Part shown: piece by piece, positions 1 to 20,200 of the stretch
Layout: each line of letters starts with the position of its first letter
Position numbering within the stretch: the first letter of the stretch is position 1
Assembly (NCBI RefSeq): GCF_964204645.1
Contig: NW_027437445.1
Span: 52,937 to 116,936, forward strand
Origin: Tubulanus polymorphus
Lineage: Eukaryota; Animalia; Nemertea
Reading direction: 5' to 3'
Length of the DNA: 64,000 nucleotides
Made by a program: the position numbers and the translations under genes
The notes under the pieces: model-generated
Seen by the model: the letters and a program-made list of their open reading frames with translations, nothing else
Told to the model about the DNA's origin: nothing
Databases searched by the model: none

Positions 1-2
1 GA

Positions 3-1010: not shown

Positions 1011-1466
1011 ACCGACAGTTACATACTAAAAATCAAGACAAATGACATAACAAAAGACTTAAAAACATTAAAACATTATTTTGATTTTAGCAATTACCCC
1101 AAAGATCATGAATTGTTTAGCAATGATAATAAAAAGATTCCTGGTAAGTTTAAAGATGAATTAGGAGGTGATGAAATGATTGAATTTGTTGGGATAAGAA
1201 GTAAAATGTATAGTTACAGAACAAAAGATCATGAAGCTAAAAAGTTAAAAGGAATAACAAAACATGTGGTTGATAAACATATAGAATTTCAAGATTATAT
1301 AAAGTGTTTATATAAATCAATTCTAATGAAACACAAAATGAATTGTTTTAGATCAGAAGATCATGAGATGTACATTAATGAAGTTGAAAAAACTAGTTTA
1401 AATCCATTTGATGATAAAAGGCATATTTTAGATGATGGTATAAAAACATTACCTTATGGCCATTAA
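3..1466 (+). CDS. polB: Protein-primed family B DNA polymerase (pPolB), C-terminal part, containing an intein; 5'-truncated by the window edge
   Basis: The frame is open from base 3 (RISEIISYQN...), so the ATG at 84 is internal. After the intein come TDS (motif C), FDFSNYP, GKFKDE, EFVGIRSKMYSY, KKLKGI and DDKRHILDDGIKTLPYGH*, a typical Polinton pPolB C-terminus. Confidence 0.95.
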   Translation, partial: RISEIISYQNKSYISYGEKELIQINGLMDVWTKNGWAKLKNIIRHKTNKKIYRVRTKLGFVDVTEDHSLIKQNGDEIKPTDIKIGDELLHNRFYPRMNHMSFDEIIDNIYNIEPETLEEKKYFIKGFFMGDGSAGVYNYVNRTQYRWYLCNQDLKLLERIKKFCEEVYPNKTFRIMDHMKSSAVYRIFVNNPKDFATKYNDEFYIHAIVKSNTSTKEKIVPDYVLNAKNNLRKWFFIGFYAADGSKSFQNRKTISFAQKGKVAISGLNILCSSLGFNMNIELIKSKPNCFNLRHVEKELTEEVKDLFEIYNPTDYVYDLSTDDGTFNSGFPLIQKNTDSYILKIKTNDITKDLKTLKHYFDFSNYPKDHELFSNDNKKIPGKFKDELGGDEMIEFVGIRSKMYSYRTKDHEAKKLKGITKHVVDKHIEFQDYIKCLYKSILMKHKMNCFRSEDHEMYINEVEKTSLNPFDDKRHILDDGIKTLPYGH

Positions 1467-2763
1467 AACATAAAATCAATATCATCATACTCGAAATCAC
1501 TATTGGCTTCTTCATTTTCATTTAATTGTTCAGGTTCTTCTTCCATTCCATTTTTCTCATTTAAATAAAGTTCTATCTTGTTCCACATTTCATCTCGCTC
1601 TCTTTGTTTCTTTTTGTTTGTTAATTCATCAAATGGAATTATAATATCTAGGTTTAAATAATTTACAATCTTATTTAAAAAGAATTCATAATTTATTGAA
1701 TCTGTTATTCTATTTTCCAAATGATACATTAATATTTGTTTGAATATTTTTTTTATATTTTTCATATCTTCTTCTGTTAATTTAGGTTTTTCATAATAAT
1801 CGTTAAATAATAAATATAAATACATTTTCTTTTGTTTTGTGTTAAATGTTGGTGGAATAATTGTTTTTATAATATCTTTTTTAGTTATTTCACCATTTTC
1901 ATTTTCTATTATTTTCATTTTTTCAAGCCATTGCATATATTCTGGTGTATGATCTTCTATAGAAAATATTTTAAAAATTTCATCAAGATAATTTAATTTT
2001 GGATCTATGAGAAAATCTCTAGTTTTTTCTTCACCTAATAAATTCTTTTGCCATCCACATTCATTACAAAATATCACAGGACCTTCTTGTCTTAAGTACT
2101 CATAAATACATTGTGGGCATTTTTTTCTATCATAGCTTGGTAATAGATCTTCATTAAGCTCTTGGTATTTTCTTACGTTTTCTTTATGTTTTATTGTTCT
2201 ATTATGTAGATTTGAATTACTTGTTGTAATAATCAATTTACAATATTTACAATAATATGTTTTTCTTGTTAATTCATTATATTGTTTTTCTAACTTTTCA
2301 ACTGTTTCTTCATTATCTGGTAACGTTTTCTCATATTTAAATTTTTCTAATAAATTATTTTTTCTTTCATTGAATTCAGTTTCAAATTTATTAGAAATTT
2401 TATCTATATGTACTTTACGAAATTGATGATTCTCCCAATCTTCTATATTTTCAGGGTTATATTTTATTCGACAAGGCTCACAGAAATGATCTTTTATATT
2501 ATCCTTATCATAGAATAAGAAAGGTCTTTTCCAAATAACTTCAGGTTCAACTTCAGCAGAATTACTATCAACATTAGCCGTTGCGCCATTAATTCTACAC
2601 TTCTCTGAATGTTTTTAACATAATTTCTTGAGAATAATTTATCACATTTTGGGCAGTTTATTTTAGGGGGTTTATAATTTTCATCATGTTTTTTCATATG
2701 TCGAGCCTTATTACTTTTTCTTAGAAGTTCACCACAAATTTCGCATGCTATCTTCTCATCCAT
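1463..2763 (-). pseudogene. Multi-zinc-finger protein fused to a VLTF3 (poxvirus A2-like late transcription factor)-like domain; one frameshift
   Basis: ORFs 2494-2763 and 1463-2236 join into one ~433-aa frame if one base is added to the T5 run at 2612-2616 (YVKK-HSEKC...). I translated the intervening frame by hand and found no stop. It contains CEIC..H..H, CPKC..H..C, CEPC..H..H and CKYC..H..H fingers, a CPQC/CNEC ribbon, and a C-terminal segment (IKKIFKQI..SINYEFFLNKIVNYL..RDEMWNKI) resembling the VLTF3 pattern. The join is well supported; the VLTF3 call is by eye. Confidence 0.7.
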
Positions 2764-2831
2764 TTATTAAGGAAAAATTTTATTAAAATTAATTTTTAGT
2801 GATGAGCGGTAATTTTTTTATGTTATAAATA

Positions 2832-3590
2832 ATGGTAGAATTAAAAGAATACAGAATATTTGTTGATTCTAGAAAACTTACAAATTATAAATCTCATAAT
2901 TTATTAGTACAATTAGATAGAGAATTTAAGAATTGCGTTGATTTAAAATTAGTAAATATAAGTTTATGTAATTCTTTTTATAATATATCGGATAAAACTT
3001 TCGAACATAGAGGTTTTGCAATTCATATGAAAAATAAAAATAAATGGTTTTATCTAATGTTAAAACCAGGGTTATATAATTTAGAAACATTAGCCCAAGA
3101 AATTAATCGGAGAGCACGATTAAAACTTGGAAGTGAATATAAATTTTCAATTAGATTTATAAAAAGTGATAGTTCTGATAAAATTAAAATAAAGTTAGAT
3201 GATGAAAGCAAACATGCATTTATGGTAAGGAAACCTTTAGCTAAAATGTTAGGAATTAAACCACAAATTGTTACAGGAAACGTAGACGGTAATTCAAATA
3301 TAATACCTTTTACACATTTTTATATTTATTGCAATTTAATCGATCCTACAAAAACATTTGAAGCAACTAAAGATACAACATGTAATTCTGGTTTACTAAA
3401 CATTTTACCATTGAAGAATGTTAAACAATTTGGAACGCAAATAAATTATAATTTAACAGAATGTGATTTCAAACCATGCATTCCTCGTTTTAATAATTTT
3501 AGATTAGAAATTAGAAATCATACTGGATACTTAATTGATTTAAATAATTTCCCTGTAATTTATGAATTAGTTATAAGATGTAAAGAGTAA
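2832..3590 (+). CDS. Minor capsid protein (penton, single jelly-roll)
   Basis: 252 aa, beta-rich. IFVDSR, NSFYNI, PGLYNLETL, LAKMLG, FYIYCNLI and C-terminal LEIRNHTGYLIDLNN match the Polinton/virophage penton pattern. Confidence 0.8.
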   Translation: MVELKEYRIFVDSRKLTNYKSHNLLVQLDREFKNCVDLKLVNISLCNSFYNISDKTFEHRGFAIHMKNKNKWFYLMLKPGLYNLETLAQEINRRARLKLGSEYKFSIRFIKSDSSDKIKIKLDDESKHAFMVRKPLAKMLGIKPQIVTGNVDGNSNIIPFTHFYIYCNLIDPTKTFEATKDTTCNSGLLNILPLKNVKQFGTQINYNLTECDFKPCIPRFNNFRLEIRNHTGYLIDLNNFPVIYELVIRCKE

Positions 3591-3606
3591 TTTTTTCATT
3601 ATATAA

Positions 3607-3948
3607 ATGAATATAACTGTTGGACCGAGTATATGTTTTGGGTTTGATTTTAAACATGGTAAAGAAATGAGAATTAAACTAAATGATGTAATTACTGATG
3701 TAAAAAGTAGATCATTTAACAATGCATCAATGATTGATAAAGAAAATTATAATATAGAAAAAGTAATTGATTTAATTAAATCACCTTTAGAATATTATGA
3801 ATTAAATGAAGATGGAATTATTGATGATATTAAAAACATATTATCCAAAATATATGATAATCATAAAACTAGTAATGAAATAAATGTTGAAATAATCATC
3901 ACTAAGATAACTAAATATTTTGATGATAGTAATTTTTTTGATAAATAA
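3607..3948 (+). CDS. Hypothetical protein (113 aa)
   Basis: ORF with a TATAAATG start; it abuts the next gene. No motif recognised. Confidence 0.7.
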   Translation: MNITVGPSICFGFDFKHGKEMRIKLNDVITDVKSRSFNNASMIDKENYNIEKVIDLIKSPLEYYELNEDGIIDDIKNILSKIYDNHKTSNEINVEIIITKITKYFDDSNFFDK

Positions 3949-4170
3949 ATGAGTGATAATAAGTGGATAATAAGTGGATTATATAATGGCGCATTACTAT
4001 CAGTTGGAACGGTTGGTTATTCAATGGTATTAAAAAAAGTATTCAAAATGGGAAGTGTTAATGTTGATAGATTTGATATCAATGATATTTTAAAGTTAAC
4101 ATTAGCAGTTACTTTATCTAATTTAACTATTGATTATTTGGAAAAACAAAAATATATTCCTCCCATATAA
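3949..4170 (+). CDS. Small hydrophobic/membrane protein (73 aa)
   Basis: TAAATG start; two hydrophobic stretches (GALLSVGTVGYSMVL; ILKLTLAVTLSNLTI). Confidence 0.75.
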   Translation: MSDNKWIISGLYNGALLSVGTVGYSMVLKKVFKMGSVNVDRFDINDILKLTLAVTLSNLTIDYLEKQKYIPPI

Positions 4171-4197
4171 GAAGTGTGTAATTTTTTTGCTAAATAA

Positions 4198-4620
4198 ATG
4201 GCTTCTGCAATTATAACTATTATAGGATCGGCAATTGTTAACGCTTTAGCATTTACTGGTGGTGGTTATTTATTTAAACATATTGATAAAAATAGTTCAT
4301 TAGGAGAACAAAGAAGACATAACTTAGCGTTAGAGAAATACAATAAAGCTGCAGAAGAATATAGAGAAAAGAGACAAAACTATATGGATTACATCAATAA
4401 AGAATTATATGATCAGAAGATTTCACACAGAGATTTTCAATCAGTTGATGATGCAATGAGTTTATATAACGCGGTAACCAATAAAGAAAAATTACATCTA
4501 TACAAACCCAAATTATCAGATTATTATACCCCAAGTAAAGAACAACAGAAATATGAAATAATATGGATTTTAGGTGGAACAGTTATTGTTATATTTGTTG
4601 CTTATAAGTTTACTAATTAG
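4198..4620 (+). CDS. Membrane protein (140 aa) with N- and C-terminal hydrophobic helices
   Basis: TAAATG start; N-terminal hydrophobic helix, central helical segment, C-terminal IIWILGGTVIVIFVAY. Confidence 0.8.
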   Translation: MASAIITIIGSAIVNALAFTGGGYLFKHIDKNSSLGEQRRHNLALEKYNKAAEEYREKRQNYMDYINKELYDQKISHRDFQSVDDAMSLYNAVTNKEKLHLYKPKLSDYYTPSKEQQKYEIIWILGGTVIVIFVAYKFTN

Positions 4621-4639
4621 TAATTTTTATTCTAAATAA

Positions 4640-5074
4640 ATGGAAGATAAAGTTGATAGTATTGATATTATTCCTCATGATATAAATAAAACTAAATTAA
4701 AAATATATTTAGAAAAACAAATATTAGAATTTGAAAGTGACTTAAAGATAAAAAAGAAAAAATATTTAAAAAGTAAAATTATATATTATTTGATTATAAG
4801 TGGTTCGGTTACAATTAGTTCTGTAATAACATTTTTAGCAATATTCAGCCCATTAACACCTTTAGCTATATCAATTGGTGTATTAGGATTAAGTTCAAGT
4901 GTTTTAACTGGTATAAGTTCAAAATTAAATATAAAAAGTAATAAAGAAAAAATTAAAACTAATATAAAAGAAATTAATAAATTAAAGAACACACTAGATT
5001 ATATAATAAGTTTAAATGGCCATATAACAGTTGAAGAACAAGATAAATTATTAAAAGAATTAATAAATTATTAA
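4640..5074 (+). CDS. Two-TM membrane protein (144 aa)
   Basis: TAAATG start; hydrophobic hairpin IIYYLIISG...LAIF / LAISIGVLGLSSSVL flanked by charged helices. Confidence 0.8.
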   Translation: MEDKVDSIDIIPHDINKTKLKIYLEKQILEFESDLKIKKKKYLKSKIIYYLIISGSVTISSVITFLAIFSPLTPLAISIGVLGLSSSVLTGISSKLNIKSNKEKIKTNIKEINKLKNTLDYIISLNGHITVEEQDKLLKELINY

Positions 5075-5090
5075 TTTTTTAATTATATAA

Positions 5091-6477
5091 ATGGTAGATA
5101 GTTTTCCAAAAGCTTTCCGATATAATAAATCAATTAAATATAATATTCCAGCAATAGATTTTAATAAAGATATTACATATAGAAATGAAGTTTTAGATTC
5201 ATTAACTAATTTAGAAATTTATGTTACTGAAACTAATAATTTTAATGCAAAGATGGAAAATATATTTCATGTATATTTAATTAATTTTAAAAAATTGAAA
5301 GATGAAAAACAATGGTTATTAAAATCTAATATGAAGTATTGGCAGAACCAATTAAATTTTGCTGTTTATTGTGCAACAACAGGATGTGGAATTAGTTGGA
5401 ATGATCATTTAAATAATTCTAAATATAAATTAATTCAAAGTTTATTTAGATTTCATACATACTTTCAAATCAGAATAATATTAAATGAATTAGAGTACGC
5501 TTTACCAGGATCTAGGTATTTCAAAGAATTAGATAATAATATTAATTTATCTAAGTTTTATAAGATTTGCAATGAATTTAATATAGATATAAATAATTCT
5601 GATTTTAGAACAAAAATTGGAACAATAAGATCACTTCCATGCCCTAGAAAGATTGCAGAATATTGTGCACTTCCCATACCATCTAATACTTTTTATAATA
5701 TCTATAATAATAAATTAGGTTATGGTAAAATAGAAACAAAGGATTTAGAAACATTAAATTTCAATAAATTACCAAAATTTTATGATAATTTAAAACAAGA
5801 AAACAATAATGGTTGGGTTTATTTTATTTTAGAAAATAGTGAAGGTTTTACTAAATCAGGTATAGAAAGAATAAATCAATCTATTAGAATTTATTTGATT
5901 TGTATTCTAGGTGCGCAAGTTGAAACAAGATCACCGATAACTGGAAATTTGAATACATCATTCGATACACAAAAACAATTTAAAGTATTATTTGAAGATT
6001 CCATACATGATGATAAAAATAGATCGATTCCAGAAAACATTATAAGATATCAAAATTATTTAGATAAATCTCATGTAAGACTTAATTATTGTATAGGCCC
6101 TAATCTATTAATTATTTCTAATGATTTAGTATTGAAGATGGGAAATATAATTGGTTATAATAATCTAATTAAAACTGCAACAATAAATAATTCATTCGGG
6201 TTAAATAATATAAATAAAAAGATTATTACTGCTCCAAAATTAATGGAAGGTGAAAAAAATAAAAAAACATATTCAATCAACAGAAACTAAAACTAAGAAT
6301 ATTAAATTAAATAATGATTCTAAAATAAAAGATTACAATACATCAGAAAATAATAGAACTGATATTATTCAACATGATATAATTAAACTAAATGATGATA
6401 ATAAATCCCATGAAAATACTAAATTAGCTAAATTAACTTGTATAGGAATTGTTATAGGAGGAATATTATATTTTTAA
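5091..6477 (+). pseudogene. Element protein of unknown function with probable C-terminal TM anchor; one frameshift near 6252-6267
   Basis: The 399-aa ORF 5091-6290 and ORF 6250-6477 join if one A is removed from the A7 run at 6253-6259 (or the adjacent A run). The result ends in HENTKLAKLTCIGIVIGGILYF*. The second ORF has no ATG/TAAATG start of its own. Confidence 0.65.
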
Positions 6478-6499
6478 TTTTAATTTTTTTATTATATAA

Positions 6500-7942
6500 A
6501 TGGATGTAGAAGGTGGAGAAGATATTGGAATGGATCCTTTTGATGAACCTAACATAACTGATGAACAACCACCTGATTTTGATGAAACAAGTTTTAATGA
6601 TGGTAATGAACCAGAATATAACAATAATTTAAATATGCCTGATTATATTAAAAATGCTGAATCACAATTAAATCCTGAAAATTTAGACCCAGATTTAGTA
6701 AAACAAGATTTAGATAATTTAAACAAAATACCTAAATTAGAAGATTTAATTGAAAAATCTAATTTTAACATAAATGATGAAGACGTTGCACTTTTAGCAG
6801 ATCAATTAAAATTTTTAGATAATGGTAAATGTAATTATCGTTTGAAAGGTGATTATTATATTGATATCACTTATAAAAATAATAAAAATAAAATATTATC
6901 AGAATCAACTTTAGAAAAATTAAAACCAGATAGAATTAAAATAAAAAGTAATAGTAATGAAATAACTGATGTTACACAAAAAGAAATAGATGATAATATA
7001 GATGTATTTAAACAAAGAATTAATGAATTATTTGAAATAATCAAAAAGAAATCAGAAACAGAAACAACTTCTGAACAGAATATAACTTCCAAAAATAGTA
7101 AACTTAGATCAAATAAAGTTCCAATTGAAAAACTTTTACCGAATGGATTACTTGATGCAACAGATCAAGAATTAGAAGATTTAGATATATTTTCTGATAA
7201 AGCAATTAGAGAAATTATTAGTATAAGACTTGCATCTGATAAAATTGCACATAATAAAAGTATAAGAGATTTTAAAATTAGAACTTTAGAAAAAGAATTA
7301 ACTGATAAAAATAAAGAAATAGAACAATTAAAGTCTGATTTAGATCATCAAGTAATTGATGAAATAGAATATAGGCAAAAAGAATTACGTTTAGAAAAAG
7401 AAATTAGTAATTTAAAAGATAATTTAGAAGTACAGAAAGAAGAAATTAAATTATTATTAAAATCATATGATTATAATATTAATAGATTAAAAGTTATTTT
7501 TAAAGATTTGTTGATTAAACCAAATTCTGAAATATCATTAAAAGACAGGATGAAGTTATTATTTAAATTAGAAGGAATAACAATTCTTTCAATTCTAACA
7601 GCTGTAACTATGTTATTTACAACAATTGGTTTAGCTATATCAAATGCTTTAAAATCTACTCCTCCTACTCCCACTCCCAATAAACCAGATAAACCTCCAG
7701 GCAATAATTCTATACAAGATAAAGTTAAAGATGGTTTAAAGAAATTAGCAAAATATTTATGGGAACTATCTAAAAAATCTGCTGCAGCATTGCCAGGAGT
7801 TATTGCATCAATTGTTGGTTTTATATTGAAATCTGCTGGGAATATTCTTAACTTTGCTGCCGAACATATTATTTTATTTTTAATTACAGTTGTAAGTGCT
7901 ATTATTTTTGGTTTAGTAAATATGATATCAAAAAATAAATAA
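6500..7942 (+). CDS. Coiled-coil membrane protein (480 aa)
   Basis: TATAAATG start; acidic N-terminus, long heptad region, TM helix (ITILSILTAVTMLFTTIGLAI), Pro-rich linker, further amphipathic/TM helices. Confidence 0.85.
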   Translation: MDVEGGEDIGMDPFDEPNITDEQPPDFDETSFNDGNEPEYNNNLNMPDYIKNAESQLNPENLDPDLVKQDLDNLNKIPKLEDLIEKSNFNINDEDVALLADQLKFLDNGKCNYRLKGDYYIDITYKNNKNKILSESTLEKLKPDRIKIKSNSNEITDVTQKEIDDNIDVFKQRINELFEIIKKKSETETTSEQNITSKNSKLRSNKVPIEKLLPNGLLDATDQELEDLDIFSDKAIREIISIRLASDKIAHNKSIRDFKIRTLEKELTDKNKEIEQLKSDLDHQVIDEIEYRQKELRLEKEISNLKDNLEVQKEEIKLLLKSYDYNINRLKVIFKDLLIKPNSEISLKDRMKLLFKLEGITILSILTAVTMLFTTIGLAISNALKSTPPTPTPNKPDKPPGNNSIQDKVKDGLKKLAKYLWELSKKSAAALPGVIASIVGFILKSAGNILNFAAEHIILFLITVVSAIIFGLVNMISKNK

Positions 7943-7962
7943 TTAATTTTTTTGTTTAATAA

Positions 7963-9210
7963 ATGAGTGGGAGTTATATAAGTCCTTCTAAGATTTCTAG
8001 AATATCTAATGCTATTAAAGCAGAAAGATCACATCATATAATTACTCATAACCCTTCAAATATTAATCCCGATGAAACTTTATATGTTAGAATTCCTAGA
8101 TTAACACAAAATACTTTTTATGTTCCAAACAGTATTTATTTATCAGCTGATATAAAAGTAATCGGTAATAATAATAATTATGTTGTTGATAATGTTGGAA
8201 GATATTTGATTAAAAAATTAACAATAAAGATTGGTCCGGAAACAGTTTTCTCATTAGATGATTATAATTTATTTTCACATTATAAAGATTTATGGTTAAC
8301 TAAAGAAAATAGAAATAATATGATATTTCAAGGAATTCAATCAGAAAACCAAAATAAATTAAGATCAGAAGCGCATAATGCAATATTAACTAATGATGTA
8401 GATAAATTGATAAAAAGTATATATGGAAGCAAATATAAAATTCCATTAGACTTTGAATTGATAGATAATAATGCACCTTTATATAAATACGCAATTCAAG
8501 AAGATATTATATTTGAGATAACATTTGCTCCTGTAAATTAAATTGTATTATCTAGCGTTGTTAAAGATATGAGTTATAAATTATCGAATATATGTTTAGA
8601 ATATAACACAATAACTAATGAAAATATTGCTAGCACAATTCAAACTCAATACAATCAAGGATTTTCATTATTATATGATTATATTGATAAATTTAAAACT
8701 GTAACTATTAATGCAAATGATGAAATTATTAATGAGAATATTAACTTTCCTAGAAGATCTATTAAAGGTATATTAATATTTTTTACCATTGGAACGTATA
8801 CTAATGGCGCAATAAAGGTAGATAATTATTATAATCCTGAAATAACAAAAGTAGAAATAACTATCGAAGGAATAGCAAATAAAATATTTTGTCAAGGAAT
8901 GAGAATGATAGATCAATGGGTAGAAATTAAAAAACATTTTATGAATGAAAAATTAAAATCATTTGAAAATTGTAATATTAATCAAATTGACTATTATACC
9001 GGTAATAAATTTGCATTATGGGTAGATTTTAGAACAACTGAAGATAACTTATTACATGGTTCTGGGAAAAAATTACAAAATACAAAAGACGGAATACAAT
9101 TATTTATGAAAAAGAAAAAAGGAAGTTTAAATTTCAAAATGCACATTTATATTATATCTGACGCACAATTAAATATTGTAAATTCACAATTAGATAGTAT
9201 TCAATATTAG
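7963..9210 (+). pseudogene. Major capsid protein (double jelly-roll) with one in-frame TAA at 8539-8541
   Basis: ORFs 7963-8541 and 8569-9210 are in the same frame (offset 606) and are separated only by one TAA, giving 415 codons in total. Beta-rich; NPSNINPDETLYVRIP, LSNICLEY, FALWVDFRT, LHGSG and YIISDAQLNI resemble Polinton MCPs. Lies next to the integrase and ATPase. Confidence 0.8.
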
Positions 9211-9240
9211 AAATATAAAGTTAAAATTAAGGATATATAA

Positions 9241-10368
9241 ATGAGTGGTAAAAAAACTCCTAATACTAAAGAACAATATTTAAGAAATTTATATTACAAC
9301 CCTGAGAGTTCGGTTGCTTATTCTTCTACTAAAAATATATGGCGTAAAGTAAAACAAGATAAATTAGATAAGATAATCCCACAAAATTTAGTTAAATATA
9401 AAGATATAAATGAATTTATGTTAGAACAACCAACATATACAACATATAAAAAAATTGTTAGAAAATATAAAACTCGTAAAACTATGGTAAGTTATGTAGA
9501 TCAACAGTGGCAAGGAGATTTAATTGATATGAAAAATGTTAAGAAAGATAATGATGATTATTGGTGGTTATTGAATATAATTGATATTTTTAGTCGTTAT
9601 GTATGGAGTTTCCCACTTTATAGAAAAGATGCTGTACAAACATCAAATGTTTTAAGAAAATTTCTTTCGGATGATAAACTAAAACCAGAAAAAATACAAT
9701 TTGATGATGGAAAAGAATTTGATAATTCACTTGTTCATGAACTCTTAGATAATCATAATATTAAATATTTTTCAACAAAATCAGATAAAAAAGCAGCAGT
9801 TGTTGAACGATTTAATAGAACATTAAGAACAAGAATGTGGAAATATTTTACAGCAAATAATACTTTTAAATGGATTGATGTTTTACCAAAATTGATAGAA
9901 GGATATAATAATTCTTATCATTCTTCTATTGGAATGAAACCTATTGATGCTAGAAAATCTGAAAATGCTGAAATTGTTTGGAATAATTTATATGGAGCAT
10001 TTCTTATAGATGATTTTGGTGAACCTAAATTTAAAGTTGGTCAAAATGTTAGAATTTCTAAGTATAAAAAGATATTTGACAAAGGATACGATCGAAATTT
10101 TACTAGAGAAATATATAAAATAAAAAAGGTAATAACAACAAAACCATATGTCTATAAATTAGAAGATTTAGATGGTGAAGAAGTTGATGGTTACTTTTAC
10201 GAAGAAGAATTAAGTTTAACTACTGAAAATCTAGAACAAGAATATAAAATTGAAAAAGTATTAAAAACAAAAACTATTAAAAGAAAAAAATATTCTTTAG
10301 TAAAATGGGTTGGATGGCCAAATAAATTCAATGAATGGATATTATCAAGTAAAATTAAAAATATATGA
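9241..10368 (+). CDS. int: Retroviral-like (RVE) DDE integrase with C-terminal chromodomain
   Basis: Catalytic triad WQGDLIDM / IQFDDGKEF / VVERFNRTL; YNNSYHSSIGMKP; chromodomain EYKIEKVL...LVKWVGWPNKFNEWI. The frame is intact. Confidence 0.96.
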   Translation: MSGKKTPNTKEQYLRNLYYNPESSVAYSSTKNIWRKVKQDKLDKIIPQNLVKYKDINEFMLEQPTYTTYKKIVRKYKTRKTMVSYVDQQWQGDLIDMKNVKKDNDDYWWLLNIIDIFSRYVWSFPLYRKDAVQTSNVLRKFLSDDKLKPEKIQFDDGKEFDNSLVHELLDNHNIKYFSTKSDKKAAVVERFNRTLRTRMWKYFTANNTFKWIDVLPKLIEGYNNSYHSSIGMKPIDARKSENAEIVWNNLYGAFLIDDFGEPKFKVGQNVRISKYKKIFDKGYDRNFTREIYKIKKVITTKPYVYKLEDLDGEEVDGYFYEEELSLTTENLEQEYKIEKVLKTKTIKRKKYSLVKWVGWPNKFNEWILSSKIKNI

Positions 10369-10977
10369 ATGAATAAGGAATTATTCATATTTGAGCCTCA
10401 TAATATGTTAATTTCTGGTGTAACAAATTGTGGAAAAACTTATTTTATATTAAATTTATTAGAAACTGTTTACAAAAACTATTTTGATAATATAGTATTA
10501 TTTTGTCCAACATATGAATTTAATCAAACTTATGATAGAAATATTACTAGGAATAATAAATTTATTATATTAGATCCTAAAACAGTAAAATAAAATTTAG
10601 ATAATTGTATAAAAATAGCAATTGATATTTATAAAGGATCAAATACATTATTTATCATAGATGATTGTGCTAATCTACATGATTCAAAAGTTAGAGAAAG
10701 TGAGTTATGTTATTTGGCTTTCTCTGGAAGACATTTTGGGATAACAACTTCGGTTTTAAATCAAAAATATAATTCAATTGTTAAAGACTTTAGAGAAAAC
10801 ATTAGATTTCTAGTTTTATTCTACAATAAAGATAGAAAATCGATGAAAAATGCACTTGAGGAAAATGATATTATTCCACATGATTTACATAATGAATATA
10901 TGGATAAGTTGAAAAATATTAAAAGATCAAAATTACTATTTAGATTACAACACCCATTTAAATATGAATTTATTTAA
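10369..10977 (+). pseudogene. A32/FtsK-like DNA packaging ATPase with one in-frame TAA at 10591-10593
   Basis: Walker A GVTNCGKT. Past the TAA the same frame gives Walker B LFIIDD, then SGRHFGI and NQKY motifs; 202 codons in total. Confidence 0.9.
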
Positions 10978-10980
10978 ATT

Positions 10981-11228
10981 CAATTAGTTTGTTAATCTAG
11001 TTGAATTCTAGTTATTGGTAGTTGTAACAAAAATCAAATAGATTTAACAATATTTTAACTAGCTTGTTAATCTATTTTAATTCTAGTTACATTCTAGTTG
11101 AATTCTAGTTGTTAGTAGTTGAAACAAAAATCAACTAGATTTAACAAGAAATAAACAAAAACAACAATATTTCAACTAGCTTGTTAATCTAGTTGAATTC
11201 TAGTTACATTCTAGTTAAATTCTAGTTG
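10981..11228. repeat. Intergenic composite repeat built from ~10-bp TTCTAGTT units, with direct and inverted copies
   Basis: 66-bp direct repeat at 11046-11111 and 11163-11228 (62/66 identical); partial copy 10997-11050 similar to 11093-11147; inverted pair TTGTTAATCTAGTTGA (10989-11004) / TCAACTAGATTTAACAA (11131-11147). Confidence 0.85.
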
Positions 11229-11261
11229 CAACATCACACAATTAATTTTTTTGTTATATAA

Positions 11262-11867
11262 ATGGGAGGTGAAAAGAAAATAAAATCTAAAAATGGTGAT
11301 GTTCCAATTGAAAAAACTTTAGATGATTTAGGAATAACAGAAACAAAATTTACTCCAGATGATGGTGCTTTAAATATTGTTACAACAAATAATAATTATG
11401 AATATTATCTTTATTGTAAACATCAATTAGAAATATTAATAGCATCTGGAAAATGTAAAAATTTTGTCGGTAAAAATTTAACTTATAATGAATTAGACAC
11501 AATGAAATCAGATGAAATTATTAGATTATTTAAGATTTATGAAGCCGCGAGAACAGCTAGAATTAATGACGCGATATCAGAAAATGTAGTAAAAGGTTAT
11601 AGTAAATTATGTAATTATATACTACCAATTGAAAATGAAAATAGATTATATTCCGATTTAAAAAATGATTATTTAGTTATGACTGAATTAAATAAATGGA
11701 TTGGATATTTATCATTTCAATTAGGTGGATTTATGACATTATTATCAACTGGAGTTATAACATTTTCAAATATTGAAAGTAAAAATATTTCTATAATAAA
11801 TGAGCGAGGTGAAAGAAGTGAAGGAATTAACTGTGAAGAAAAAACCGAGAACTCAGAAACAAATTGA
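11262..11867 (+). CDS. Hypothetical protein (201 aa) with hydrophobic C-terminal segment
   Basis: TATAAATG start preceded by a T-tract; helical; WIGYLSFQLGGFMTLLSTGVITF. Confidence 0.8.
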   Translation: MGGEKKIKSKNGDVPIEKTLDDLGITETKFTPDDGALNIVTTNNNYEYYLYCKHQLEILIASGKCKNFVGKNLTYNELDTMKSDEIIRLFKIYEAARTARINDAISENVVKGYSKLCNYILPIENENRLYSDLKNDYLVMTELNKWIGYLSFQLGGFMTLLSTGVITFSNIESKNISIINERGERSEGINCEEKTENSETN

Positions 11868-12168
11868 ATGGTCTCGACAATTAGGAATTAAATCACAAGA
11901 ATATAAAAAAGCTGTAAAAGAAAAAATAAGTAATAAAAATGTTAATAAAAATGGTGAAAATATTGTTATTTCTACTCCTTCTGATAGTAGAATATTTGAT
12001 AAATATTTATATTTTACAGTTGGATTTGTAATTGTATTCATTTTGATTGGGTGTAATTGGTATAAGAAATCAAATAAAATTCATGATATTAGTAATTCTG
12101 AACCAACTGCTATCAAAAATGAAAGTACTTCTGAAATTCCAAAATTGATAATAAAAAAAATGGATTAA
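11800..12168 (+). CDS. Basic single-TM protein (122 aa)
   Basis: TAAATG start inside the upstream ORF; basic KKKPRTQKQIEW segment; TM YLYFTVGFVIVFILIG. Confidence 0.75.
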   Translation: MSEVKEVKELTVKKKPRTQKQIEWSRQLGIKSQEYKKAVKEKISNKNVNKNGENIVISTPSDSRIFDKYLYFTVGFVIVFILIGCNWYKKSNKIHDISNSEPTAIKNESTSEIPKLIIKKMD

Positions 12169-12514
12169 TATTTTAGAAAAAAAGCAAAAAAAATAATTGA
12201 ATATCTCATTACTTTTGTCTATCACTGTGGAGCAATTAAATTGTCCAGATAAGTCATTTCGGATTCTAGATATTCATTATTTTTATTAATTTATTTTGTT
12301 TTTATTTGAATATTTGAATTTGAATTTGTTAATCAATTAACATAGTAATTGATTACTAATTTGATTAAAAATTATATCATAATGAAGTTAAAAATACATA
12401 ATTCATTTATCAGTTTTCATTCTTACATTCTTTTCATTCGGAATAATTTATAATTTCAAATTTCACATATTTTTTTTTAGCACCAACAACATTTACTTAG
12501 GTGTTTTAGCTAAG

Positions 12515-12521
12515 TATATAA
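12515..12521 (+). promoter_or_regulatory. Putative TATA box for the structured RNA
   Basis: TATATAA begins 31 nt upstream of the first paired base (12546). The AT-rich context lowers its specificity. Confidence 0.5.
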
Positions 12522-12545
12522 GGCAATTCATTCAACCACTGGAGT

Positions 12546-12834
12546 GCCGCCGGGCTTGGCTTGCAGGGGCATTTCGAAAATGCACCTTTGTCCACCCTCC
12601 GTGGTTCTCCTTCAGTTTCGACTTTCGATCCTCCTTTCGGGGGTAAGGGGTTGATAGGAAATGCATTAGGCGCCTTTAATATAATGTGTTTCCTGTCAAC
12701 CATTGAAGGAGAATTGGTGAGGTGTGGGTCACAGGGGTGTAATTAGAAATGCTTGGGGATAGGTATCTCGTGGCGCCTCTCAATAACGGGATGCTTATCC
12801 CCTAAAAACTCTGTGAGTCAAGTCGGGTGGTTTT
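12546..12834 (+). ncRNA. Putative ~286-nt multibranch structured RNA of unknown family with twin GGCGCC hairpin loops
   Basis: Nested stems paired by hand: 12546-68/12809-31 (23 bp, 1 mismatch), 12569-75/12746-52, 12581-91/12731-41, 12602-16/12702-16, 12649-68/12682-701 and 12755-71/12786-802. They contain 20 G-U wobbles on the + strand. The region is a GC-rich island in an AT-rich element and ends in TTTT. Confidence 0.8.
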
Positions 12835-13174
12835 GCTAAAACTTACCGTAAAAACATTGAAATATTCCTTTTAATCACGAGAGAATGATGACTATCCTCC
12901 TGTCGTCACGGCTGAGCTAATTTAAATAAACCTCGTTTTCAGCAACTAATGAAAACGTAGTAATTCAATACCAGCTAACTGGCTTGTGTGTGTTGTATGT
13001 ACTGCGTGCTTATTATATAACAACAACGTTGTGCAACACCTGTTTGATTGATCAATATTCAAATGAAGCACTCTCTTATAATAATATGTAACAGATGTAC
13101 TGTATGATTATAGTTGTTTATAAAACGACTAAGGTCATTTTGGATTCTAGATATTCATTATTTTTATTTCTTAT

Positions 13175-13501
13175 TTAATCAACAATTTCTAAATCATGAT
13201 GACCGTCTTCATTTTTCCCATGATATATTATTTTAAATCCTACTAAATCTTTCAATTCCTCCATACTCAATGAAACCCATTTATCGGGTAAAAACACTTT
13301 AAATTCTCGTGATGTACTAACATTACAGTAGCTTAAATTAGCTGATACTTTCTCTCCATATTTAGTTTTTATCTTTTCTAATTTCAATATCTTATGTTCA
13401 ATTTCTTTTGTAACATCAACTAACTTTTTTATTTCAAATTGTTTTTTTGCTGGTTTTATTCTGTTATTTATTGTTGCTAAGAATGCTTTTCTATCTCCCA
13501 T
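13175..13501 (-). CDS. Small protein (108 aa), probable OB-fold ssDNA-binding protein
   Basis: TATAAATG start; KKL..V, KTKYGEKV, KVFLP and IIYHG pattern recalled from small Polinton proteins. The OB-fold assignment is an inference. Confidence 0.6.
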   Translation of the reverse strand: MGDRKAFLATINNRIKPAKKQFEIKKLVDVTKEIEHKILKLEKIKTKYGEKVSANLSYCNVSTSREFKVFLPDKWVSLSMEELKDLVGFKIIYHGKNEDGHHDLEIVD

Positions 13502-13537
13502 TTATAAGGAAAACAAATTACTTGTGGTGATGAGTGG
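13497..13537 (-). promoter_or_regulatory. Duplicated upstream/promoter block, copy 1
   Basis: 40/41 identical to 14127-14167; spans the ATG plus 36 nt upstream (CCACTCATCACCACAAGTAATTT.TTTTCCTTATAAATG on the - strand). Confidence 0.75.
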
Positions 13538-13636
13538 GGATTACTTCCCCTTGTATATAACAAACACGCTATTAACCGTTCTCACCCAAGCCTCACTCTA
13601 TTTATCCAGGTACAGTTAACACACGCGCAGCTGTTG

Positions 13637-14131
13637 TTACGCGCACTCACTGTTTATGTGTGTCACAATTTTACTACGTAATATTTCTAAAATTTCAATT
13701 GTATCTTTTATTTCTAGTGAATCAATATAATTTCTAACATTTTCCATGTAAGGTTTATTAGAAATGGATTTAGTTTTTGAAGTTGATTCTTTTACTTGTT
13801 GAGGTTTATTATCAAAATATTCTAATCCTAAAACATTTTTATTTAAATTTTTATAATGTTTTTGTGATTCGAGATGTCTATTATAATTCCTTTTTACTAT
13901 AAATTCATTACAAACTTCACATTTTATTTCATCCACATTCATATTTTCTAATCGTTCTTTTCTTTCATTGGAATTTTCTGGAGTTTCAAAATCTATTACA
14001 TTTTTTATATGATTTGCAGTTTTTTCATGTCGTGTTTTATGAGATGTATCGATGTATTTTTTACAATATTGACAATAATATTGATTTTTATTGACATTAT
14101 TGTTTTCTAGTTGGTGTTCATTCTCCCCCAT
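13637..14131 (-). CDS. Zinc-finger protein (164 aa) with two U1/matrin-like C2H2 fingers
   Basis: YYCQYCKKYIDTSHKTRHEKTANH and IKCEVCNEFIVKRNYNRHLESQKH; TATAAATG start. Confidence 0.85.
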   Translation of the reverse strand: MGENEHQLENNNVNKNQYYCQYCKKYIDTSHKTRHEKTANHIKNVIDFETPENSNERKERLENMNVDEIKCEVCNEFIVKRNYNRHLESQKHYKNLNKNVLGLEYFDNKPQQVKESTSKTKSISNKPYMENVRNYIDSLEIKDTIEILEILRSKIVTHINSECA

Positions 14132-14167
14132 TTATAAGGAAAAAAAATTACTTGTGGTGATGAGTGG
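14127..14167 (-). promoter_or_regulatory. Duplicated upstream/promoter block, copy 2
   Basis: 40/41 identical to 13497-13537, at an offset of 630 bp. Confidence 0.75.
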
Positions 14168-14216
14168 TGTGTCGCCCTCTCGCCCTCTGATCTGAAAGCC
14201 TACATTCCCAATTACT
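14168..14216. repeat. Right terminus of the element (presumed outer part of the terminal inverted repeat)
   Basis: Ends ...ATTACT, which fits the AG...CT termini of Polintons; contains CGCCCTCT twice (14173-14188). The partner TIR is not in the window, so TIR length is unknown. Confidence 0.65.
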
Positions 14217-17200
14217 AACGTCGTTCAGCGCGAGAAAAGACGTTTTCTCGTCAACTTATCTCCGTATCGGAAAAATGATAATGTCGATGCGCAAAAGCGC
14301 TCAAATCGTCAGGAAAAGCACTTTTCGACCCGAAAACGTCGTTCAGCGCGAGAAAAGACGTTTTCTCGTCAACTTTTCCCCGTATCGGAAAAATGATAAT
14401 GTCGATGAGCAAAAGCGCTCAAATCGACGGGAAAAGCACATTTCGGTCCGAAAACGTCGTTCAGCGCGAGAAAAGACGTTTTCTCGTCAACTTCTCCCCG
14501 TATCGGAAAAATTAAAATGTCGATGCGCAAAAGCGCACAAATCGTCGGAAAAAGCACATTTCGGCCCGAAAACGTCGTTCAGCGCGAGAAAAGACGTTTT
14601 CTCGTCAACTTCTCCCCGTAACGGAAAAATGATAATGTCGATTCGCAAAAGCGCTCAAATCGACGGGAAAAGCACATTTCGGTCCGAAAACGTCGTTCAG
14701 CGCGAGAAAAGACGTTTTCTCGTCAACTTATCCCCGTATCGGAAAAATGAAAATGTCGATGCGCAAAAGCGCTCTAATCGACGGGAAAAGCACATTTCGG
14801 CCCGAAAACGTCGTTCAGCGCGAGAAAAGACGTTTTCTCGTCAACTTCTCCCCGTATCGGAAAAATGAAAATGTCGAAGCGCAAAAGCGCACAAATCGTC
14901 GGAAAAAGCACATTTCGGCCCGAAAACGTCGTTCAGCTCGAGAAAAGACGTTTTCTCGACGGGAAAAGCACATTTCGGTCCGAAAACGTCGTTCAGCGCG
15001 AGAAAAGACGTTTTCTCGTCAACTTCTCCCCGTAACGGAAAAATGATAATGTCGATGCGTAAAAGCGCTCAAATCGTCAGGAAAAGCACTTTTCGACCCG
15101 AAAACGTCGTTCAGCGCGAGAAAAGACGTTTTCGTATCGAATATTTCCCCTATCGGAAAAACGACGTTGTCGATGCGTAAAAGCGCTCAAATCGTCAGGA
15201 AATGCACTTTTCGACCCGAAAACGTCGTTCAGCGCGAGAAAAAGACGTTTTCGTATCGAATATTCCCCCTAGCAGAAAAACGACGATGTCGATGCGTAAA
15301 AGCGCTCAAATCGTCAGGAAATGCACATTTCGGCCCGAAAACGTCGTTCAGCGCGAGAAAAGACGTTTTCTCGTCAACTTCTCCCCGTATCGGAAAAATG
15401 ATAATGCCGATGCGCAAAAGCGCTCAAATCGACGGGAAAAGCACATTTCGACCCGAAAACGTCGTTCAGCGCGAGAAAAGACGTTTTCTCGTCAACTTCT
15501 TCTCCCCGTAACGGAAAAATGATAATGTCGATTCGCAAAAGCGCTCAAATCGACGGGAAAAGCACATTTCGGCCCGAAAACGTCGTTCAGCGCGAGAAAG
15601 ACGTTTTCTTGTCAACTTCTCCCCGTATCGGAAAATGAAAATGTCGATGCGCAAAAGCGCACAAATCGTCGGAAAAAGCACATTTCGGCCCGAAAACGTC
15701 GTTCAGCGCGAGAAAAGACGTTTTCTCGACGGGAAAAGCACATTTCGGTCCGAAAACGTCGTTCAGCGCGAGAAAAGACGTTTTCTCGTCAACTTCTCCC
15801 CGTAACGGAAAAATGATAATGTCGATGCGTAAAAGCGCTCAAATCGTCAGGAAAAGCACTTTTCGACCCGAAAACGTCGTTCAGCGCGAGAAAAGACGTT
15901 TTCGTATCGAATATTTCCCCTATCGGAAAAACGACGTTGTCGATGCGTAAAAGCGCTCAAATCGTCAGGAAATGCACTTTTCGACCCGAAAACGTCGTTC
16001 AGCGCGAGAAAAAGACGTTTTCGTATCGAATATTCCCCCTAGCAGAAAAACGACGATGTCGATGCGTAAAAGCGCTCAAATCGTCAGGAAATGCACATTT
16101 CGGCCCGAAAACGTCGTTCAGCGCGAGAAAAGACGTTTTCTCGTCAACTTCTCCCCGTATCGGAAAAATGATAATGCCGATGCGCAAAAGCGCTCAAATC
16201 GACGGGAAAAGCACATTTCGACCCGAAAACGTCGTTCAGCGCGAGAAAAGACGTTTTCTCGTCAACTTCTTCTCCCCGTAACGGAAAAATGATAATGTCG
16301 ATTCGCAAAAGCGCTCAAATCGACGGGAAAAGCACATTTCGGCCCGAAAACGTCGTTCAGCGCGAGAAAGACGTTTTCTTGTCAACTTCTCCCCGTATCG
16401 GAAAATGAAAATGTCGATGCGCAAAAGCGCACAAATCGTCGGAAAAAGCACATTTCGGCCCGAAAACGTCGTTCAGCGCGAGAAAAGACGTTTTCTCGAC
16501 GGGAAAAGCACATTTCGGTCCGAAAACGTCGTTCAGCGCGAGAAAAGACGTTTTCTCGTCAACTTCTCCCCGTAACGGAAAAATGATAATGTCGATGCGT
16601 AAAAGCGCTCAAATCGTCAGGAAAAGCACTTTTCGACCCGAAAACGTGGTTCAGCGCGAGAAAAGACGTTTTCGTATCGAATAATCCCCCTATCGGAAAA
16701 ACGACAATGTCGATGAGTAAAAGCGCACAAATCGTCAGGAAAAGCGCATTTCGGCCCGAAAACGTCGTTCAGCGTGAGAAAAGACGTTTCCTCGTCAACT
16801 TCTCCCCGTATCGGAAAAATGATAATGCCGATGCGCAAAAGCGCTCAATTCGACGGGAAAAGCACATTTCGGTCCGAAAACGTCGTTCAGCGCGAGAAAA
16901 GACGTTTTCTCGTCAACTTCTCCCCGTATCGGAAAAATGATAATGCCGATGCGCAAAAGCGCTCAAATCGACGGGAAAAGCACATTTCGGCCCGAAAACG
17001 TCGTTCAGCGCGAGAAAAGACGTTTTCTCGTCAACTTCTCCCCGTATCGGAAAAATGATAATGTCGATGCGTAAAAGCTCTCAAATCGACGGGAAAAGCA
17101 CATTTCGACCCGAAAACGTCGTTCAGCGCGAGAAAAGACGTTTTCGTATCGAATATTCCCCCTATCGGAAAAACGACGATGTCGATGCGTAAAAGCGCTC

Positions 17201-20200
17201 AAATCGTCAGGAAAAGCACATTTCGGCCCGAAAACGTCGTACAGCGCGAGAAAAGACGTTTTCTCGACGGGAAAAGCACATTTCGGTCCGAAAACGTCGT
17301 TCAGCGCGAGAAAAGACGTTTTCTCGTCAACTTCTCCCCGTATCGGAAAAATGATAATGTCGATGCGCAAAAGCGCTCAAATCGACGGGAAAAACACATT
17401 TCGGCCCGAAAACGTCGTTCAGCGCGAGAAAAGACGTTTTCGTATCGAATATTCCCCCTATCGGAAAAACGACGATGTCGATGCGTATAAGCGCTCAAAT
17501 CGTCAGGAAAAGCACATTTCGGCCCGAAAACGTCGTTCAGGGGGAGAAAAGACGTTTTCTCGTCAACTTCTCCCCGTATCGGAAAAATGATAATGTCGAT
17601 GCGTAAAAGCGCTCAAATCGTCAGGAAAAGCACTTTTCGACCCGAAAACGTCGTTCAGCGCGAGAAAAGACGTTTTCTCGACGGGAAAAGCACATTTCGG
17701 TCCGAAAACGTCGTTCAGCGCGAGAAAAGACGTTTTCTCGTCAACTTCTCCCCGTATCGGAAAAATGATAATGTCGATGCGCAAAAGCGCTCAAATCGAC
17801 GAGAAAAGCATATTTCGGCCCGAAAACGTCGTTCAGCGCGAGAAAAGACGTTTTCGTATCGAATATTCCCCCTATCGGAAAAACGACGATGTCGATGCGT
17901 AAAAGCGCTCAAATCGTCAGGAAAAGCGCATTTCGGCCCGAAAACGTCGTTCAGTGCGAGAAAAGACGTTTTCTCGTCAACTTCTCCCCGTATCGGAAAA
18001 ATTATAATGTCGATGAGCAAAAGCGCTCAAATCGACGGGAAAAGCACATTTCGGTCCGAAAACGTCGTTCAGCGCGAGAAAAGACGTTTTCTCATCAACT
18101 TCTCCCCGTATCGGAAAAATGATAATGTCGATGCGTAAAAGCGCTCAAATCGACTGGAAAAGCACATTTCGGCCCGAAAACGTCGTACAGCGCGAGAAAA
18201 TACGTTTTCGTATCGAATATGCCCCCTATCGGAAAAACGACAATGTCGATGCGTAAAACCGCTCAAATCGTCAGGAAAAGCGCATTTCGGCCCGAAAACG
18301 TCGTTCAGCGCGAGAAAAGACGTTTTCTCGTCAACTTCTCCCCGTATCGGAAAAATGATAATGTCGATGCGCAAAAGCGCTCAAATCGACGGGAAAAGCA
18401 CATTTCGGCCCGAAAACGTCGTTCAGCGCGAGAAAAGACGTTTTCGTATCGAATATTGCCCCTATCGGAAAAACGACGACGTCGATGCGTAAAAGCGCTC
18501 AAATCGTCAGGAAAAGCACTTTTCGACCCGAAAACGTCGTTCAGCGCGAGAAAAGACGTTTTCTCGACGGGAAAAGCACATTTCGGTCCAAAAACGTCGT
18601 TCAGCGCGAGAAAAGACGTTTTCTCGTCAACTTCTCCCCGTATCGGAAAAATGATAATGTCGATGCGTAAAGGCGCTCAAATCGACGGGAAAAGCACATT
18701 TCGGCCCGAAAACGTCGTTCAGCGCGAGAAAAGACGTTTTCGTATCGAATATTGCCCCTATCGGAAAAACGACGACGTCGATGCTTAAAAGCGCTCAAAT
18801 CGTCAGGAAAAGCACTTTTCGACCCGAAAACGTCGTTCAGCGCGAGAAAAGACGTTTTCTCGACGGGAAAAGCACATTTCGGTCCGAAAACGTCGTTCAG
18901 CGCGAGAAAAGACGTTTTCTCGACGGGAAAAGCACATTTCGGTCCGAAAACGTCGTTCAGCGCGAGAAAAGACGTTTTCTCGTCAACTTCTCCCCGTATC
19001 GGAAAAATCATAATGTCGATGCGCAAAAGCGCTCAAATCGACGGGAAAAGCATATTTCGGCCCGAAAACGTCGTTCAGCGCGAGAAAAGACGTTTTCGTA
19101 TCGAATATTCCCCCTATCGGAAAAACGACGATGTCGATGCGTAAAAGCGCTCAAATCGTCAGGAAAAGCGCATTTCGGCCCGAAAACGTCGTTCAGTGCG
19201 AGAAAAGACGTTTTCTCGTCAACTTCTCCCCGTATCGGAAAAATGATAATGTCGATTCGCAAAAGCGCTCAAATCGACGGGAAAAGCACATTTCGGTCCG
19301 AAAACGTCGTTCAGCGCGAGAAAAGACGTTTTCTCGTCAACTTATCCCCGTATCGGAAAAATGAAAATGTCGATGCGCAAAAGCGCTCTAATCGACGGGA
19401 AAAGCACATTTCGGCCCGAAAACGTCGTTCAGCGCGAGAAAAGACGTTTTCTCGTCAACTTCTCCCCGTATCGGAAAAATGAAAATGTCGAAGCGCAAAA
19501 GCGCACAAATCGTCGGAAAAAGCACATTTCGGCCCGAAAACGTCGTTCAGCTCGAGAAAAGACGTTTTCTCGACGGGAAAAGCACATTTCGGTCCGAAAA
19601 CGTCGTTCAGCGCGAGAAAAGACGTTTTCTCGTCAACTTCTCCCCGTAACGGAAAAATGATAATGTCGATGCGTAAAAGCGCTCAAATCGTCAGGAAAAG
19701 CACTTTTCGACCCGAAAACGTCGTTCAGCGCGAGAAAAGACGTTTTCGTATCGAATATTTCCCCTATCGGAAAAACGACGTTGTCGATGCGTAAAAGCGC
19801 TCAAATCGTCAGGAAATGCACTTTTCGACCCGAAAACGTCGTTCAGCGCGAGAAAAAGACGTTTTCGTATCGAATATTCCCCCTAGCAGAAAAACGACGA
19901 TGTCGATGCGTAAAAGCGCTCAAATCGTCAGGAAATGCACATTTCGGCCCGAAAACGTCGTTCAGCGCGAGAAAAGACGTTTTCTCGTCAACTTCTCCCC
20001 GTATCGGAAAAATGATAATGCCGATGCGCAAAAGCGCTCAAATCGACGGGAAAAGCACATTTCGACCCGAAAACGTCGTTCAGCGCGAGAAAAGACGTTT
20101 TCTCGTCAACTTCTTCTCCCCGTAACGGAAAAATGATAATGTCGATTCGCAAAAGCGCTCAAATCGACGGGAAAAGCACATTTCGGCCCGAAAACGTCGT

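Follow-up and report, generated by a model that had tools for sequence, protein, structure and literature searches.

Within the AT-rich Polinton that makes up bases 1-14216 of the window (the whole stretch of DNA analysed, 64,000 nucleotides), we found that a segment of about 290 nt, here called the RNA unit, is a real feature and is selected for its + strand fold. Its helices (P1 to P6), its loops and the candidate signals around it are as follows:

12515..12521, + strand: TATATAA, candidate TATA box, 31 nt upstream of P1
12546..12834, + strand: predicted structured RNA of about 290 nt, from P1 to the T4 run; GC content 0.50, against about 0.23 for the element
12546..12568, + strand: 5' strand of P1, which pairs with 12809-12831 and closes the RNA unit
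12569..12616, + strand: 5' strands of the spine P2/P3/P4, with partners at 12746-52 (P2), 12719-41 (P3 and the extensions) and 12702-16 (P4)
12617..12648, + strand: P4/P5 junction with two small hairpins, 12618-28 and 12630-43
12649..12701, + strand: P5, a 20-bp hairpin
12669..12681, + strand: P5 loop, 13 nt, starting with GGCGCC
12755..12802, + strand: P6, a 17-bp side hairpin
12772..12785, + strand: P6 loop, 14 nt, starting with GGCGCC
12803..12808, + strand: P6-P1 junction strand, A-rich, 6 nt
12831..12834, + strand: T4 run, candidate Pol III terminator, the only four-T run in the RNA unit

The MFE structure recovers the six helices at the positions where the earlier note, made from the letters of the DNA, had placed them, and their mean pair probabilities, like those of the CCAC/CCTC extensions, are 0.96-1.00; the CCTCC hairpin reaches 0.79 and the small hairpin at 12618-28 reaches 0.71. 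The pair census reported there was reproduced as well: the 93 helix positions hold 72 Watson-Crick pairs, 20 G-U pairs and one mismatch (G-G, in P1), with zero A-C. Folding both strands of 12540-12840 against shuffled controls, a check that had been proposed with the claim, gave -156.3 kcal/mol (z -11.65) for the + strand and -89.9 kcal/mol (z -4.05) for the - strand, and 0 of 100 shuffles folded as well on either strand. When bases 1-13920 were tiled with 48 segments of 290 nt (both strands, 8 shuffles each), the lowest z, -7.1, fell on the segment over the RNA unit, and the next best elsewhere was -3.5. The longest stop-free frame crossing the RNA unit has 84 codons, in agreement with the statement that it holds no credible ORF. 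The P5 and P6 stems differ in sequence, as had been claimed, but some relatedness is left, since GATAGG occurs close to the base of both. The word TTCG occurs four times in the 5' half (12573, 12617, 12624 and 12636), a number reached by 143 of 5000 shuffles; three of these words lie inside the P4/P5 junction (12617-12648), and they are possible U-turn or T-loop motifs. Downstream of the RNA unit, the stretch 12840-12985 folds weakly (z -3.5).

Selection on the fold was supported by a second copy family. DNA data over 12482-13120 were available from three runs, as 2946 raw DNA reads (X5) and as contigs (X1 and X3). The second family is represented by one contig each in two runs, at depths of 229.8 and 919.4, and its P5 changes occur on about one third of the raw reads in the third run. 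Over 12651-12802 it diverges by 17%, and all 26 differences of the X3 contig in this interval were tabulated, so that unlisted sites there are unchanged. In this comparison, which is a single pairwise one inside one species label, 12 changes fall on the 35 P5/P6 pairs with both sides visible, and none of these pairs is broken. Three P5 pairs are altered on both sides (12654/12696, 12658/12692 and 12661/12689; A-U to G-C, G-C to A-U and A-U to U-A), the single changes in P5/P6 pairs turn four G-U pairs into Watson-Crick pairs and two the reverse way, and all five single changes in P6 keep the pairing. Placing the same substitution types at random positions in 200,000 trials broke 5.5 P5/P6 pairs on average and left all of them intact in 6 trials. 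Read as - strand, 6 and 4 of the 35 pairs are broken. These pair-keeping changes bear out the view of the earlier note that the + strand fold is under selection.

The G-U bias itself could have been the trace of a one-strand mutation process. This origin was rejected, since among the changes listed for the unpaired flank 12913-13110 both directions occur, T>C six times and A>G five times, and one-strand deamination therefore does not account for the bias. For P1-P4 the support consists of fold energy and G-U bias, because the second family did not align at 80% over its 5' half, with 145 loose-ended reads at 12545 and 146 at 12651. Eleven changes have a 5' partner that is unseen, ten on P1-P4 and one at the P5 base; if the partner is unchanged, 7 of the 11 keep the pair found in the window and 4 break it, and the same stretch holds two indels. 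The depth of common contigs relative to rare ones points to tens of genomic copies, depth being no copy number. Many copies skip about 100 bp just 3' of the RNA unit (12884-12985; 92 reads in X5), a stretch that is likely dispensable given its weak fold.

Both loops have the sequences and positions first reported for them and are predicted to be unpaired (probability 0.91-1.00). GGCGCC occurs in the whole 64-kb window at 12669 and 12772 only, once per loop; 6 of 5000 dinucleotide shuffles contain it twice, and 122 of 5000 contain any all-GC palindromic hexamer twice. In both loops the hexamer directly continues the 5' strand of the stem, and a linker of 7-8 nt with AAUA at its end comes after it. 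Both predicted loops present an exposed palindrome in the manner of a DIS-type hairpin. The hexamer duplex is worth -14.1 kcal/mol as free strands, loop strain not counted. In the second copy family the loops are altered at 1 of 27 sites, compared with 25 of 125 elsewhere in 12651-12802 (p 0.03): the P5 loop at 0 of 13 sites and the P6 loop at 1 of 14, namely 12779, outside the hexamer. The hexamers are unaltered at all 12 sites, an invariance that alone is not significant (p about 0.07), and neither was found switched to another palindrome in that family. Judging from this predicted architecture, loop-loop kissing is plausible, and we give it an even chance.

TATATAA was confirmed to start at 12515, 31 nt ahead of 12546. 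A TTTT directly after P1 had also been described; the run is present at 12831-34, but its first T doubles as the last P1 pair. For the description of the whole as a Pol III-like unit, the signals are weak. TATA and T4 exist, but no clear A box candidate was found within the RNA unit, and the lack of an internal T4 is unremarkable, being shared by 707 of 5000 shuffles (14%). A B-box-like 9-mer at 12623, in the P4/P5 junction, has one mismatch to the consensus of the internal B box of Pol III genes. TATATAA itself resembles the T-tract/TATAAATG motif that precedes most Polinton ORFs, but lacks the ATG. Among 14 ORF starts listed for 2832-14131, 12 end in TAAATG, and a T tract lies before most; together with the VLTF3-like gene (1463-1936), these starts recall poxvirus late promoters. 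In the second family a four-T run seems to be present among the loose ends, early in the 5' half; if real, it would undercut the reading of T4 as a terminator. We predict that the RNA unit probably has its own + strand transcript, bounded by the TATA at -31 and the T4 run. Pol III is the likelier polymerase in this prediction.

The Polinton context that had been recognised in the letters was upheld by matches to an intein-bearing ORF, a VLTF3-like protein, a capsid-like protein, an rve-integrase/chromo protein and an A32 ATPase (Pfam E-values 2.8e-10 for rve, 3e-06 for A32 and a weak 0.003 for Capsid_N), and zinc-finger ORFs are present in the element. The ORF at 84-1466 matches Pfam through intein domains only, including LAGLIDADG, and appears polymerase-like from C-terminal motifs read by eye; a 1241-aa relative of it is encoded at 337-4062 of the related contig L067 and matches window positions 1009-1459. 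Among integrase relatives named from eukaryotes, the nearest belong to a ribbon worm (47%) and a fish (42%), which makes an animal host likely, probably an invertebrate. The left end of the element falls outside the window, and no reverse transcriptase gene was found within the stretch of the element that is seen. The capsid gene is split over two ORFs in 7963-9210 (192 + 213 aa, against 415 aa in the related contig L064) and the ATPase ORF (10369-10593) is short (74 against 204 aa in L064), which may reflect decay or assembly error. Past the ATPase gene, repeats of 93-97 bp and of 11 bp are clustered in 10957-11228, a region with equal folding of the two strands, and similar words occur near the homologue of a 201-aa neighbour in L069 and L070. 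An array of a 118-bp satellite, organised in higher-order repeats and with a GC content of 0.47, directly abuts the element and fills 14217-64000; the repeat analysis covered 10000-20000, composition is flat to the end of the window, and the ORFs in the satellite are repeat artefacts.

The immediate surroundings of the RNA unit are the following:

11800..12168, + strand: left neighbour, a 122-aa ORF without a Pfam match, conserved in related Polintons
12253..12287, no strand assigned: left copy of a 35-bp direct repeat, with AATAAA on the - strand
13134..13168, no strand assigned: right copy of the 35-bp direct repeat, just downstream of the - strand 108-aa gene
13175..13501, - strand: right neighbour, a convergent 108-aa ORF without a Pfam match, with a homologue in L064

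The 35-bp repeats are 97% identical, enclose an 881-bp unit that contains the RNA unit, and look like a shared 3' signal. Next to them, 44-bp direct repeats (95%; 13494-13537 and 14124-14167) enclose a 630-bp unit with a zinc-finger ORF, and in each copy lie the promoter motif and the start of a gene read on the - strand. Accessory modules may enter by recombination at shared signals.

Eight related Polinton contigs (L-series) were obtained from a metagenome scan via the 201-aa neighbour; they are partial (1.1-11.5 kb) and about 70-83% identical in DNA to the window genes. The RNA unit was found in 0 of the 8 by BLAST, GC content, hexamer count or covariance model, and GGCGCC is absent from all eight. 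Their top 200-nt GC is 0.28-0.43, compared with 0.52 in the window. The position behind the 122-aa gene, which the RNA unit occupies in the window, differs in its cargo: L064 carries a deoxynucleoside kinase there (10340-10981; Pfam E 1.7e-31), and L066 and L067 the integrase. A covariance model returned no RNA homologue in the eight contigs; this model was built from one sequence, which limits its reach, and over the window and the eight loci it recovered the RNA unit itself and its own hairpins reversed. The absence from the related contigs implies accessory cargo, and the RNA unit looks like a lineage-specific cargo of one Polinton lineage; since the contigs are partial, it could sit elsewhere in those genomes.

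The related Polintons have gene-junction hairpins of their own: L066:3033-3105 (z -9.7), L068:3540-3680 (z -8.8), L071:905-1000 (z -6.8) and L064:2430-2540 (z -3.6). Three of the four sit after the ATPase gene, and all are AT-rich (GC 0.16-0.31), strand-symmetric and unbranched or nearly so, with 0-5 G-U/G-T pairs. They are possible 3'-end signals. With z values of -6.8 to -9.7 in such hairpins, a low z by itself is nothing unusual among these Polintons.

A search of the 64 kb against Rfam gave 0 matches at the gathering score. With the limit set at E 10, the interval 12000-13300 gave 8 chance-level matches, one of them, of 24 nt, over the RNA unit, and no match was obtained to the Rfam models of ribozymes, group I/II introns, SRP, 7SK or RNase P/MRP. 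Remote lineage-specific forms of an RNA can escape Rfam. A tRNA or tRNA-derived SINE was rejected (0 genes at the normal threshold, and no A tail), as was a tRNA-Ser-like fold, a weak match equalled by 129 of 500 shuffles. An IRES or 3' UTR element was discarded too, there being no + strand ORF after the RNA unit and poly(A) hexamers nearer the upstream stop. In viral contigs, the twin-loop pattern retrieved 63 loci, none with both hexamers on stems (8 and 4 pairs in the best, against 20 and 17 in the window), a second twin-loop pattern retrieved 0, and the covariance model gave one chance match (E 0.45). The P5 loop occurs 0 times in the prokaryotic genomes, phage records hold no DNA match to the RNA unit, and protein-anchored scans found no related loci in the viral contigs or prokaryotic genomes. 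The earlier note knew of no described ncRNA of this kind in Polintons, and we found none in the mainly open-access literature searched. The RNA unit is a new family within the databases and literature searched.

How might such a segment work? We tentatively propose, by analogy, that it is transcribed into an RNA that is clasped by its two loops and acts as a decoy for Dicer-type or other dsRNA-binding defence proteins. The non-coding accessory segment, likely a stand-alone + strand RNA of about 290 nt, would then be a VA-RNA-like decoy of dsRNA defence. P1-P2-P3-P4-P5 would form one long rod that small loops and G-U pairs interrupt, and P6 would branch off it sideways as an arm; the predicted structure has zero unpaired bases between P1/P2 and between P4/P5, and P6 is joined via a 2-nt and the A-rich 6-nt linker. 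By pseudoknot geometry, the 7-8-nt linker of each loop would suit a strand that crosses the minor groove of a 6-bp loop-loop helix. P5, kiss and P6 add up to 43 bp, compared with 41 bp plus small loops for the P2-P4 spine. Were the arm to fold back where P4 meets P5, these two lengths would match and the kiss would close a single molecule; if the rod is straight, the loops would meet only those of other molecules and yield dimers or chains. The single-molecule kiss and the multimers are about evenly balanced. A VA-like decoy was chosen because the segment is accessory, consists mostly of a long imperfect helix with variable stems, and ends in a U run. VA RNA is described as an inhibitor of PKR and a Dicer substrate, and a flaviviral RNA is thought to be a Dicer decoy in insects (PMC4378190).

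Two other accounts, both rather unlikely in our estimate, put self-pairing in the foreground. In one, rods that each bear two identical self-complementary loops, oriented in different directions, would assemble on their own, with no protein involved, into rings, chains or a condensate. In the other, a self-pairing RNA would have a scaffold or localisation role outside defence, the loops serving as twin protein-binding sites or dimer contacts. The latter agrees with the conservation of the entire loop beyond the hexamer (26 of 27 sites), with the sole loop change, which brings the P6 loop closer to the P5 loop, and with the zinc-finger ORFs of the element; however, the RNA unit is mostly long G-U-rich stems, and a stem-flush palindrome in both loops would be unneeded for protein binding.

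An origin of the segment by capture, be it of a host RNA gene, of a SINE or of a small mobile cassette, without function for the Polinton seems unlikely. In favour of it, the segment is a GC island in the 881-bp unit between the 35-bp direct repeats, the relatives are without it, and a 1425-nt contig matches 12513-12626 only and then diverges from the window. Against capture, there is no Rfam family, tRNA or poly(A) tail, the 35-bp repeat looks like a shared 3' signal and adjoins the 630-bp unit with its 44-bp repeats, and pairing is kept between multi-copy families. That the RNA unit is a precursor whose P5, P6 or P1 is processed into viral miRNAs or siRNAs is quite unlikely: P4 and P5 do offer about 35 stacked pairs plus a terminal loop, and viral Pol III pre-miRNAs exist (PMC4378190), but here the stems vary and the loops are kept, the opposite of a miRNA precursor.

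The RNA might instead be structural, as part of the virion or of the packaging motor, with loops that join copies into a ring on the capsid and ATPase as in phi29 pRNA, one of the analogies first drawn. A three-way junction whose separate arms bear the two loops would suit it, as would the capsid and A32 ATPase genes of the element, and pRNA multimerises head to tail via two loops (PMC7357161). Yet the pRNA loops are complementary and non-palindromic (PMC7357161), whereas here both carry the same palindrome, and the accessory nature of the RNA unit argues against a packaging role: the related contigs, several with the same capsid, integrase and ATPase genes, lack the RNA in the stretches covered. 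We therefore disfavour the analogy and regard this role as very unlikely.

Similarly improbable is that the segment acts as single-stranded DNA, in a structure that serves packaging or strand-displacement replication. The replication of Polintons is believed to expose single strands, and a fold of the + strand with DNA parameters gives z -8.45, so that energy alone is compatible with this account. The pairs speak against it, since G-U/G-T pairs make up 21 of the 109 MFE pairs on the + strand and none on the - strand, compared with 0-5 in the DNA-symmetric hairpins of the relatives, and so do the internal site and the relatives without the RNA unit. The selected molecule is thus very probably RNA and not single-stranded DNA. 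A 3'-end or termination hairpin between convergent genes is extremely unlikely: the neighbours converge, giant viruses follow a rule of hairpins at transcript 3' ends or termination, and strong junction hairpins occur in L066, L068, L071 and L064, but these are near-unbranched, AT-rich and strand-symmetric, unlike the RNA unit, which begins 378 nt beyond the + strand stop of the left neighbour with a TATA of its own, and the poly(A) hexamers of both neighbours are closer to their stops than the RNA unit is.

Polintons are widespread in animal genomes, have been proposed as adenovirus relatives, and share with adenoviruses a common protein-primed polymerase lineage. So far they have been described by their proteins; if the RNA unit is indeed a selected stand-alone RNA, they also carry RNA effectors, and one could test directly whether this lineage gave rise to VA-like decoys repeatedly. 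Since Rfam misses the RNA unit, screening the intergenic regions of Polintons by fold may reveal more. Natural RNA multimers are described as rare (PMC7357161). An RNA of 290 nt with two identical kissing candidates is easy to handle in vitro, so that the question of self-assembly could be settled quickly. Should it self-assemble, it would be the first for this virus group within the literature searched.

Among known systems, a survey of Polinton-like viruses with Rfam, ARAGORN and Barrnap, and limited by these tools to known classes, lists tRNA, rRNA, miRNA, group I intron, snRNA, snoRNA and histone stem-loop (PMC12220804); the RNA unit matches no class named in that survey. In OLE, ROOL and GOLLD, symmetric kissing loops are described to join copies, and the L9.3 palindromes of OLE include GGCC (PMC12286853). 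These RNAs are far larger, bacterial or phage, and switch palindromes, whereas for the RNA unit no such switching was seen and there is no Rfam match. The likeness to phi29 pRNA lies in a three-way junction, two loops for intermolecular pairing and a protein-primed DNA virus; pRNA is given as 174 nt long and essential, with 4-bp complementary non-palindromic loops (PMC7357161, PMC2241910), and its Rfam model is not matched by the RNA unit. If self-assembly holds, the RNA unit would be a eukaryotic viral counterpart of the pRNA and OLE/ROOL/GOLLD assemblies.

Retroviral dimerisation signals (HIV-1 DIS, MMTV, MoMuLV) present a palindromic GC hexamer in a hairpin loop, as is predicted here. For MMTV, a GGCGCC palindrome is implicated in RNA dimerisation (pal II, PBS pal; PMC4264320), and MoMuLV has two self-complementary loops, in SL-C and SL-D (PMC7357161). 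Those signals act in cis in an RNA genome, while the present loops belong to a DNA element, have 13-14 nt and carry the palindrome at the 5' edge. VA RNAI/II and EBER1/2 are likewise compact, highly paired, non-coding RNAs of DNA viruses with a 3' U run, VA RNA being about 160 nt long in contrast to about 290 nt here (PMC4378190). The RNA unit does not match the VA and EBER models of Rfam, and it has an upstream TATA without clear internal A/B boxes of the Pol III promoter type. To our knowledge, twin palindromic loops are not a feature of VA RNA. In its working, the RNA unit would by analogy come closest to a VA RNA or EBER fitted with DIS-type loops, but as a member of none of these families.
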